A DNA stretch of 64,000 nt from Chrysomallon squamiferum (GCA_012295275.1 CM022672.1:12276001-12340000); one strand, 5' to 3'; positions 27,669-43,135 are shown, counted from the first letter of the stretch. The notes: generated by a model from the letters alone, not told the origin. A program made the numbers and translations.

Positions 27669-30600
27669 CTAAACATTTCCGTATATATGTTCTTGTTTGT
27701 TTTTGTATGTCTTTGGTGGTAGATTCACAGGTACAGGCAAACTCTCTGTATTGATGTAGATGCTTTCTGGGCGTGGTGATGTGTTGATGTACACGTCTTC
27801 CTCCTGGGCTGGTGTATTTTTTTGAGCATCACACATTTTCTGAAATTTTTCAGTGAGGTTAGAGAAAGATGGCCGATCCTCTGCATCCACAGACCAGCAC
27901 ATATTCATTATTGAAAATCTGTCAAAAACCAAATAGGATTATATAAAAAAATATATACTGGTATATATATATATATATATATATATATATATAATATAGA
28001 CATACTATTTATAAGGTATATATATTAGGAAAATAATCATACAGCCACATGTATTTAAGAAATAGTGAAACAAGATCATATGTGTGTGTGAATTAGTATG
28101 TGCCAAGCCACAGCTTGTGAGTTTTTATTTTTTAATTAAAACTTATATATTTGCATGTATGGATGTATGCATGTATATTTTGTGAAATATATCAGTTAAA
28201 AGACAAATACTTACAAATCATTACAAATCAATTCAGGTTTTCCTAGTCGATATCCCTTGACAATGTAATTAATTACTTGCTCGTTGGGTATTTCTTGGAA
28301 AGGAAGCAAACCTCTTGTTAGGACCTCCCACATGACAACTCCAAAGGACCACTGAAATATGAAAATAATAATAATGATGAAAAAAAAATTGTTAGTTTTG
28401 GGGGGGGGGTTTGGTGGGTTTTTTTAAACAAACAAACAAATAATAAATAAATAAAATAGTTTTTTTCTGTTAATTTTTTTCAACATTTATCAGGCGCTAT
28501 TTTTATAAACTGGATTTAACCTTCACAAGTAATCTGTTCTGAAGACAGATCAAACCTGTTCATTTTAAATGCCTCTTTTCAGAGATTCTGTATTTCTTCA
28601 CATGGAAACAGAAAATTCCAAATGCCTGTGATTTACTAGGATGAAAATTTAATTTCTTCTCACTACAATTTTTTTTTTTTTTTTACGCATTTTAAAATTA
28701 ATAAAAACATTTTGATTAGTGTGGTACAGTTCTCTTATTGCTGACCCTGTTTATCTCCGTTGAATCTGTATATTATACTAAAGTTTCTGTTACGTGTACT
28801 ACTCACAACATCTGATTTGTTGTCATAGAAACCAGACTGAAGACTTTCTGGAGCCATCCATCTGACAGGTATGTGACGATCTTTAATTTCGTCAAACATG
28901 TATTCATCTGGATAGAGGTCCCAGGAAAATGCTCCATCCCCAACCTTAACACTCTGATTGCTGTCAACCCTGGCAAAAACAACAACAACACTTTATATTA
29001 GTTGATTTTACTACTCTGTAATAACAATGACAAAAGAAAGAAAGAAAGAAAAGTCATGAGTATTTAAAGGAACACAGTGTGCATTGATTAAAGCAAACTT
29101 TAATGATAATCAATTAAATGGAAAAACATTTTAATCTGATTTAAGAAAAACAAAAATGTCAATACTACCTGATCTTGGAACTTAGAGATGTTTGAGACAT
29201 TTTTGAATATTATTTTGAAATATATCCAACAAGTACTTTATGACTGTTTTAAATAACAATAATATATGTTCTGCTTGCTATTTCTGGGGGAAAAAAAAAC
29301 ATGTTTCCTCTTTTATTGTCTACACAGACCTTAGCAGTATGCATAACATTAGATAACTGTTGATACCACTTTTAAATTTAAAAATAAAAATAAAAATTAA
29401 TTCTTTTTAAGTTATAGTTACATATTCTTCAAAACATTATTCAGCTTATAAAAAGTCAACAAATCAGTTTGAAATTTAATTCTTACACTTATTATTATTA
29501 TTATTATTTTATATATTAACAATGTTTTCTGTGATAATATACAACATTTGTTTAAAATAATATAAGCTAAGTTAAACTCACCAACAATTCCTGGCTGCTA
29601 AATCTTTATGTACAATATCTTTGCTGTCTAAAAAGTCCATACCTTCAGAAATATCGATGCAACAATGTACTAACTGAAGAAGTACAAAATTCTGAAAAAT
29701 GCAAGATTTTAAAGAAAAGTCAACATTTGATTTGAAAAACTGTAATAAAATGGTTTTATAAATCGTTCATGGCTGAAGCAGTTGTTAGAGAAAAGTGAAA
29801 GTAAGATCATTTAAAATGAAAAAGCCAATAATCTTATTGTTCCATTCAAAGTACCAAAGTATAACTGTGATTATATATTATTCTGTCATAGCTTTGCTAG
29901 TAAAAAAAAAGAAAATGATATACATTTTTAAAAAAAAGAAGAATTTGTTTGTAATGCATTTTGTAGAGTGGGTCACTGATTTCAAATGTGGTTTTCATAT
30001 TTTTATATATATATTTCTTTTTAATTCATTTAATTTTTTTTTATTTTTTTTTTTAACAATACTGAAGGCATGATAAATTAAAATCTTTAATCAAGATAAT
30101 TACTGGATTAGACTCATGTATGCAACTTTTTTATGTACACTTAATCACCTATTATTTCACATTTTATTTTGTTTTCTATTCATAATTTCTTTTTTCTTTG
30201 CTCAAGAAAAACTGGATATATTGCATTTTATTTTGCAACATCCCATTTCTGTATATCACTGTTAGTTTAGATCAGTGCTCAGTAACCTTTTTTTGTGCAT
30301 ACCTCACTTTCAAACACTGAAACTTAAATGATATTATTAAACTATAAATAAATGTTTAGTTAATTTTTCATAAAAGTTTAAATTATTCAAACACTGAATG
30401 GAGATATAAGAGAAACAGAACTCCTTTGTTTCTAAGATGTTCGTTGATTGTAAAATATATGTTATAACAGACTAAGAAAACAACAACAAATCTGAAAAGT
30501 TATACAGTAGGTGCATAAACAAATAATTAATTTTTATAATAATAAATAATTGCTCCAGTTGAAGTTACATGGTCACTTAAAACCCTATAAAAGCCATTGC

Positions 30601-42600: not shown

Positions 42601-43135
42601 TCTTTGACCTTGCTTTCCAACTTATTACTAGTAACATATAACAAAAAACCAAAAACACTGCAATAACAAAGCATATATTAAAAAGAAAACAAAATTAATC
42701 TTACCAGTTATCACAAGAACCCTTGATCCACATGGATAAGGCTTGTTTACGTAAATCAACAGTTTCGTTTATAAAGCATGTGTCAGTCGTAGAATTATAG
42801 TACAAATTTCCATTACTAGCATTTGCTGCTGGAGGTGGACTGGCAGGTTCTTTGACATTGCCGGGACATTTATCTCCAATCAGATTCTTAACACTGGGAA
42901 ACGAGGTGCGCGAAGAAGAAAGACACTGGAGTTCACATATTCCATATTTTTCGCACATTGTTTCATTGAAACCATTTCGACAGTCTTTGTCACACTGATT
43001 TGATGTTTGAAGTGAACTCCCCTCAGCTACATCGAAAATATCTGAAGGGGTGTAAAATGTCTGACTGTGAAACAGTGGAAGACAGAAGATGAGAATTAGT
43101 AGGACGGAATACTGTGGTAACGTTTTCGCTTTCAT
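27669..43135 (-). CDS. Receptor tyrosine kinase-like protein, ~1360 aa: signal peptide, usherin-like LamG-like/laminin N-terminal/laminin-EGF region, 3 IPT domains, TM, atypical RYK/MET-like kinase
   Basis: 23 phase-compatible exons totalling 4083 nt: 43135-42705, 42282-42129, 41596-41503 (GC donor), 41062-40993, 40369-40117, 38970-38840, 38612-38505, 38116-37906, 37525-37189, 36515-36349, 35735-35593, 35160-34990, 34552-34459, 33820-33620, 33127-32978, 32681-32456 (TM), 31889-31689, 31230-31132, 30887-30706, 29691-29582 (VHKDLAARNCW), 28969-28807 (VKVGDGAFSWDLY...PVRWMAPES...KSDV), 28351-28215 (WSFGVVMWEVLTRGLLPF), 27918-27669 (CWSVDAEDRPSF). Exon 2 has an alternative same-phase acceptor near 42243. 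Confidence 0.9.
31918..32060. repeat. (TAAAA)n pentanucleotide microsatellite
   Basis: Long run of taaaa units in the intron before the juxtamembrane exon; source of the spurious FYFIL-repeat ORFs. Confidence 0.95.

Follow-up and report, generated by a model that had tools for sequence, protein, structure and literature searches.

At positions 27669 to 43135 of a 64,000-nt stretch of the Chrysomallon squamiferum genome (GCA_012295275.1 CM022672.1:12276001-12340000; hereafter the window) lies a gene on the minus strand, running from 43135 to 27669, whose product combines a head resembling that of usherin with IPT domains, a transmembrane helix and a tyrosine-kinase fold (Table 1). The gene is real. 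Spliced by coordinates, its 23 exons form 4,044 nt in a single frame that specifies 1,347 amino acids and a stop codon, with no internal stops; the first-pass annotation had the exon number and the single frame right and overstated the length (~1360 aa). GT-AG ends are found at 21 of the 22 introns. The remaining one, intron 3, requires a GC donor, which lies outside the RNA coverage, and the frame at this point is collinear with that of relatives. Neighboring genes in the window include a PARP14-like gene on the minus strand (~800-5200), with RRM matches and an acidic, repeat-rich long exon, and an O-GlcNAcase-like gene on the plus strand (~14100-23020; NAGidase match at 14106-14501), which is convergent with the gene described here. 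GC-richer open frames at 8190-8960 look by eye like a fragment of a Tigger/CENP-B-type transposase, with no Pfam match at E 0.01. On the minus strand at 59757-60011, an exon that is presumably TAPP-like resembles by eye the start of a PH domain, again with no Pfam match.

Table 1. Features of the receptor gene, in window coordinates and in the order of transcription
Feature	Position	Strand	Basis
Exon 1: start codon and likely signal peptide, then the Cys-rich leader of usherin type and the first part of the LamG-like domain (aa 1-144)	42705..43135	-	spliced model; by-eye alignment with usherin N-termini
Exons 2-4: LamG-like domain (ConA/pentraxin-type); GC donor at intron 3	40993..42243 (42243-42129, 41596-41503, 41062-40993)	-	family profile, top 11 matches usherins
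Exons 5-7: shortened laminin N-terminal (LN) domain, ~150 aa	38505..40369 (40369-40117, 38970-38840, 38612-38505)	-	Pfam, profile; predicted Gigantopelta head
Exons 8-10: four laminin-EGF repeats and a six-cysteine partial repeat	36349..38116 (38116-37906, 37525-37189, 36515-36349)	-	Pfam, cysteine pattern
Intron 10: 613 nt, phase 0, putative fusion point of usherin-derived and MET-derived halves	35736..36348	-	spliced out in X1 and X2 contigs
Exons 11-15: three IPT domains, equivalent to MET IPT2-4	32978..35735 (35735-35593, 35160-34990, 34552-34459, 33820-33620, 33127-32978)	-	Pfam, profiles, alignment
Exon 16: last part of the IPT stalk, followed by the transmembrane helix and a basic stop-transfer stretch	32456..32681	-	exon scan, helix
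Exons 17-22: juxtamembrane region and tyrosine-kinase-fold domain; GxGxxG absent, HKD for HRD, DGA for DFG	28215..31889 (31889-31689, 31230-31132, 30887-30706, 29691-29582, 28969-28807, 28351-28215)	-	Pfam, motif table
Exon 23: last part of the kinase, tail bearing four YxN motifs (of which two are positioned like the MET docking tyrosines), stop codon	27669..27918	-	alignment, motif table

The junction 36349>35735, where the laminin-EGF exons give way to those of the IPT domains, had been singled out for checking. Contigs of RNA runs X1 and X2 show it spliced, with 613 nt skipped between canonical ends. These runs belong to one study, and the shorter side of the junction measures 143 and 103 bases. 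They are two of three RNA runs; the third, X4, has no cover at that stretch. A further run, X3 (of a kind not on record), has the junction stretch unspliced in one piece. The RNA was compared directly over 35430-36900, and this is the sole junction aligned directly. The joins between exons 9 and 10 and between exons 11 and 12 were read by eye from loose ends of the RNA contigs, and the remaining junctions are based on collinearity with relatives. The window differs from runs X1-X3 at 35723, 36357 and 36395, each difference altering an amino acid; these are alleles or assembly errors.

A per-exon Pfam scan covering 20 of the 23 exons places laminin-EGF domains in exons 8-10, IPT/TIG domains in exons 11 and 13-15 and the tyrosine kinase domain in exons 19-23. 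It gives a weak Laminin_N match in exon 5 (E 0.088) and no credible match in exons 1-3; the LamG-like domain is seen as weak Laminin_G_3 matches in relatives. A single hydrophobic helix occupies ~aa 912-942. The transmembrane helix, the tyrosine kinase domain, the three IPT domains and the “4 full plus 1 partial” laminin-EGF repeats of the first-pass annotation are all borne out. The laminin-EGF part comprises ~250 aa with 37-41 cysteines, followed directly by IPT, and its last repeat stops after the sixth cysteine, here as well as in each of the 9 relatives (of 10) that showed the pattern. The disulfide pairing of laminin-EGF domains is established, and a repeat ending at the sixth cysteine would have all its cysteines paired. 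The Littorina member (P0300) has fewer of these repeats than other family members.

Sequence comparison identifies the head as that of usherin rather than that of a laminin or netrin. Profiles built from the family were run against 310 proteins, a set rich in laminins. The top 11 matches of the LamG-like profile are all usherins (13.8-39.9 bits; next 5.7), usherins likewise come first with the LN profile (top 12 at 24.5-58.5 bits; next 16.9), and they make up the top five of the laminin-EGF profile with other proteins close behind. The leader profile has no match outside the family among these 310 proteins; the leader does align with usherin N-termini by eye. The LamG-like, LN and laminin-EGF domains thus follow the leader in usherin order, as the earlier description of the N-terminal half had it. 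The family differs from usherin in its shortened LN and in having fewer than five laminin-EGF repeats, against ten in usherin (P0034). It also lacks the FN3 and later LamG arrays, with no FN3 match by Pfam in the full-length relatives scanned, and bears IPTs and a kinase fold instead. The predicted structure of the Gigantopelta head (mean pLDDT 71, pTM 0.46) matches the solved LN-LE structures of laminin beta1 and netrin (E 2e-15; Z about 10), and its LamG-like part matches bacterial beta-sandwiches alone (Z 9.2-9.4). Unlike the heads of netrins and laminins, that of the family is much closer to usherin in sequence, carries the usherin LamG-like domain upstream of the LN and belongs to a membrane-bound protein with an inner kinase fold.

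The introns tell the same story. The first nine have phases 2,0,1,2,0,2,2,0,1, and all nine agree in order and phase with human USH2A boundaries (c.485, 651, 784, 848, 1143, 1328, 1550, 1971 and 2167), five of them confirmed in print. Six fall on the same aligned residue and three within a few codons. A bat usherin served as numbering proxy; at 9 of 9 residues that papers name, its numbering agrees with the human one. The probability of a chance match in phase is ~0.4% for the five printed boundaries and 0.006% for all nine, both rough values that ignore position and take the pairing from the alignment. For intron 9, c.2809 was rejected, the residue not matching; c.2167 fits exactly. The five in print are c.486-1 (PMC5606877), c.651+1 (PMC3678402), c.785- and c.1551- (both PMC9918427) and c.1328+1 (PMC3207874). 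Two further boundaries listed in PMC9918427, c.1644 and c.1840, have no counterpart here, in line with repeat loss in that region. The c.848+1 that appears in PMC5291209 was rejected as a USH2A boundary; it belongs to CRB1.

A search with exon 9 gave 150 proteins among the matches listed, and blastp with the spliced model then picked out the relatives. These include a full-length protein from Biomphalaria (33% over aa 26-1310 of the spliced model) and two overlapping Gigantopelta records (56-61% identity). A kinase-region search (best 120 of 1,339 matches, 506-1,610 aa) added Haliotis (three species), Littorina, Bulinus, Candidula, Solemya, Ostrea, Saccostrea, Mytilus (two species) and Dreissena, and relatives are now seen in at least 15 named gastropod and bivalve species. 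Head and kinase occur in one chain in 10 of them (three Haliotis, Littorina, Bulinus, two Biomphalaria, Solemya, Ostrea and M. californianus), the others being partial records. Two more records with the full layout (1,271-1,331 aa) sit on contigs of 4.6-6.6 kb that barely exceed the open frame, which we infer to be assembled transcripts. The family forms one clade (100/100) that divides into gastropods and bivalves, with the window sequence adjoining Gigantopelta or Haliotis, as expected for one old gene that was vertically inherited. The fusion is common to gastropods and bivalves, a sharing that the first-pass annotation missed. None of the best 120 of the 1,339 kinase-region matches is a non-mollusc member of the family, and the absence of cephalopods, chitons, annelids and brachiopods from these 120 is weak evidence. 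Mytilus californianus has both a canonical Sema-PSI-IPT MET and the fusion gene. In the gastropods Patella and Elysia there are records named usherin in which the LN is full and the repeats are more numerous. Within the 64-kb window, tblastn with four such proteins found no canonical USH2A, MET or RYK-type copy elsewhere. Word searches with single exons 9 and 21 returned no match, and the ESM Atlas, limited to clusters of at least 50, gave no match above 0.84 and no cluster with this layout. By blastp there was no family member among the metagenome-scan loci (80 of 430 confirmed loci kept), which were used solely as outgroups.

The kinase is the best conserved part of the protein in comparison with Gigantopelta (76% identity), with 36-52% identity to other members. 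All 17 family kinases lack GxGxxG and DFG and read HKD, and the MET/RON controls are canonical in 8 of 8. All 17 retain the beta3 Lys, the catalytic Asp, the Asn and the Asp of the DFG position, and 16 of them have the alphaC Glu; the Tyr aligned with the first of the MET activation-loop pair is also kept. YxN motifs, aligning with the docking tail of MET, are found in 16 of the 17 tails, which are otherwise 14-49% identical; the exception is a shorter record. Phosphorylated YxN is an established Grb2 SH2 site. We predict from these motifs that the family kinase is likely a pseudokinase; that it is probably no enzyme was overlooked by the first-pass annotation. Being without the standard motifs and likely inactive, it would likely serve as a docking scaffold for contact or matrix signals. 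The Lys/Glu/Asp set is likewise retained, with altered motifs and an occluded ATP site, in RYK, ROR1 and ROR2, and the altered glycine loop/HRD/DFG pattern is listed for RYK, ROR and PTK7 (both in Table 2 of PMC13259870). The family resembles RYK, ROR, PTK7 and HER3 in its HKD, its altered DFG and glycine loop and its retained Lys/Glu/Asp; it differs from them in lacking a WIF, CRD/kringle or Ig ectodomain and in having a MET-type stalk and tail.

The same fusion might instead carry a kinase that is active in an atypical manner, like a non-RD kinase, and thereby be a true RTK, with autophosphorylation of the YxN tail once the usherin head has bound ligand. The classical catalytic residues (Lys, Glu, catalytic Asp and Asn, DFG-position Asp) are kept across the family and may allow catalytic activity, and the retained activation-loop Tyr and the overall conservation of the domain point the same way. 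However, no member has the GxGxxG or the Phe of DFG, all read HKD, and RYK, ROR1 and ROR2 keep the same Lys/Glu/Asp yet have an occluded ATP site (PMC13259870, Table 2). On balance, the motifs make an active kinase unlikely.

The stalk, membrane helix and kinase fold point to MET. Human MET 655-1359 aligns to the family profile as a single stretch at 372.8 bits, and the kinase-only chain that scores best against it is that of MET (228-237 bits), ahead of RYK (206), RON (202), IGF1R (up to 200) and TYRO3 (196). With the IPT profile, MET and RON align as a single piece (87-139 bits) and two Met-LP-type records as two separate ones (72+24). There are three IPTs here, equal to MET IPT2-4, and not four as in MET. 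Pfam found neither Sema nor PSI in the full-length relatives scanned, both being present in Mytilus and Mercenaria MET, and no WIF in the exons scanned or in relatives. Twelve presumed exon boundaries of human MET, not found in print and including a phase-0 intron before IPT2, agree in phase with as many of the last 13 introns here, and ten of the 12 also coincide in aligned residue. The 3' end of intron 10 coincides with this presumed phase-0 intron, marking the likely fusion point. The IPT2-4, transmembrane helix, kinase fold and YxN tail are collinear with MET/RON, with the Sema, PSI and IPT1 exchanged for an usherin head and the GxGxxG, HRD and DFG lost. In the absence of Sema, PSI and IPT1, binding of HGF or MSP via Sema is not expected.

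Profiles, shared introns (five of the USH2A boundaries being in print) and full-length relatives thus support, from sequence, the earlier proposal of a MET-lineage receptor in which an usherin head replaces its own, with the amendment that the part replaced comprises the first IPT as well as Sema and PSI. The label “RYK-like kinase” describes the degenerate motifs and not a demonstrated ancestry, MET scoring above RYK by profile and the fold being a tie: Foldseek with the predicted kinase puts the RYK pseudokinase first by a tiny margin (E 1.3e-23 vs 2.6e-23 for MET). A quick kinase tree, from which RYK and TAM are absent, groups the family with MET-type kinases against other RTKs (SH-aLRT 98). 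An IPT+kinase tree, likewise without RYK and TAM, places the family on a long stem outside the MET group, adjoining a Met-LP-type record (91/95), and a clade of the family with mollusc MET is borderline rejected (p-AU 0.0497). The trees leave the MET placement unsettled because of the long family stem and the missing RYK and TAM.

These trees raise the possibility that the inner half came from Met-LP, or from an older gene of the MET/RYK stem, and not from MET proper; the family could then predate molluscs, and its dead kinase and that of RYK might have a common ancestor. The placement beside the Met-LP-type record, the p-AU value, the Foldseek tie and the HKD and D-x-A-type motif in common with RYK all fit such an origin, as does the clustering of MET, RYK and TAM into one group reported in PMC4898815. 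Against it, the IPT profile is in one piece on MET-type and in two on Met-LP-type records, the kinase profile favors MET over RYK, and the YxN tail is MET-like. The HKD is also found in unrelated PTK7-like and ROR-like records of the metagenome scan, so that it arises repeatedly and need not mean RYK ancestry, the long stem makes the position in the tree unsure, and there is no non-mollusc member among the best 120 of 1,339 matches. Met-LP, as described from lophotrochozoans and echinoderms in PMC6374515, does offer a parallel, being an invertebrate MET-type kinase under a non-MET ectodomain with an IPT stalk, but it has a complete plexin ectodomain (Sema, PSI-IPT x3, IPT x3), and the family has no Sema. 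We hold an origin outside MET proper to be quite improbable.

Our preferred reading, to which we assign a probability of roughly 0.6, is a single-pass receptor with an usherin outer end and a likely MET-type inner part, whose likely pseudokinase would signal through clustering and phosphorylation by another kinase. We infer that the fusion happened once, before the gastropod/bivalve split, at or near the phase-0 intron preceding MET IPT2, leaving the parent genes in place. The predicted partner of the LamG-LN-LE head is not HGF but a molecule of the matrix or the cell surface; the first-pass annotation likewise proposed a possible link to matrix or ciliary cues. The IPT stalk would keep the head off the membrane and, together with the membrane helix, transmit clustering. 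This might in turn expose the tail to phosphorylation by an active kinase, such as canonical MET or one of Src type, with the pYxN sites predicted to recruit Grb2-type SH2 adaptors. By analogy with HER3 or RYK, such a receptor could signal without catalysis of its own. A fuller version of this proposal, which we consider about evenly balanced between true and false, is that these proteins constitute a receptor class of their own, kept since before the split of snails and bivalves, in which an usherin head on a MET-derived pseudokinase senses contact or matrix and gives a phosphotyrosine output, possibly as a co-receptor of mollusc MET. If so, a link protein of hair bundles and cilia was turned into a sensor, the binder of the usherin LamG-LN-LE head would have its first signaling read-out, and a RYK-like dead kinase would have originated independently.

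The protein might alternatively be a structural tether or decoy, a membrane-anchored link of the usherin type whose kinase fold would offer an inert surface for binding and give no phosphotyrosine output. Such a role would suit the degenerate catalytic motifs and the nature of usherin, a link and matrix protein, but the retention of YxN in 16 of 17 tails that are otherwise so divergent, the one exception being a shorter record, makes it highly improbable. That an usherin fragment and a MET fragment are two neighboring genes merely appearing joined, as split database records such as those of Gigantopelta (544 aa, “usherin-like, partial”, and 920 aa, “HGF receptor-like”) might suggest, is already largely refuted by the overlap of these two records across the head-IPT junction, by the RNA contigs that span it in the Chrysomallon squamiferum window and by the 12 records with head and kinase in one chain.

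Full-text literature searches, most subscription literature lying outside their scope, found no described receptor with this layout, in agreement with the first-pass statement that no described RTK class with the combination is known; this is likely an undescribed receptor family. Database names for its members are automatic (MET-like, usherin-like or uncharacterised). The available text of PMC6374515 reports Met and Met-LP in molluscs from Sema searches, that is, by a domain that the family lacks. The accessible part of the oyster kinome paper PMC4883820 has neither “laminin” nor “pseudokinase”, and its S1 table may list the kinase under Met, Ryk or TK-unique. Neither “mollus” nor “laminin” occurs in the accessible part of PMC8662651, and in that of PMC3516229 usherin is merely an outgroup.

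The fusion adds an apparently unrecognised receptor family, hidden by automatic labels, to molluscs that include schistosome host snails, abalones, oysters and mussels. It also provides a clean case of gene fusion with the intron marks of both parents still present, and likely a kinase of the MET/RYK group that decayed independently to the same pseudokinase motifs. The usherin head is apparently able to stand as a module on a signaling receptor, which makes its binding partner testable with a reporter. Exchange of the ectodomain is a known type of event among RTKs, the marks of both parents being unusually clear in the present one. Other MET-type kinases in our set, from Bulinus (P0217, P0235, P0250) and from a mite and a spider (P0200, P0247), have IPT or no annotated Sema, the arachnid records standing out in that PMC6374515, in its accessible text, found no Met in Ecdysozoa. 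A further protein, P0236 (1,021 aa), combines FN3 and several Ig domains with an intact kinase. This kinase clusters with those of MET type, and the protein is possibly another ectodomain swap of this kind.
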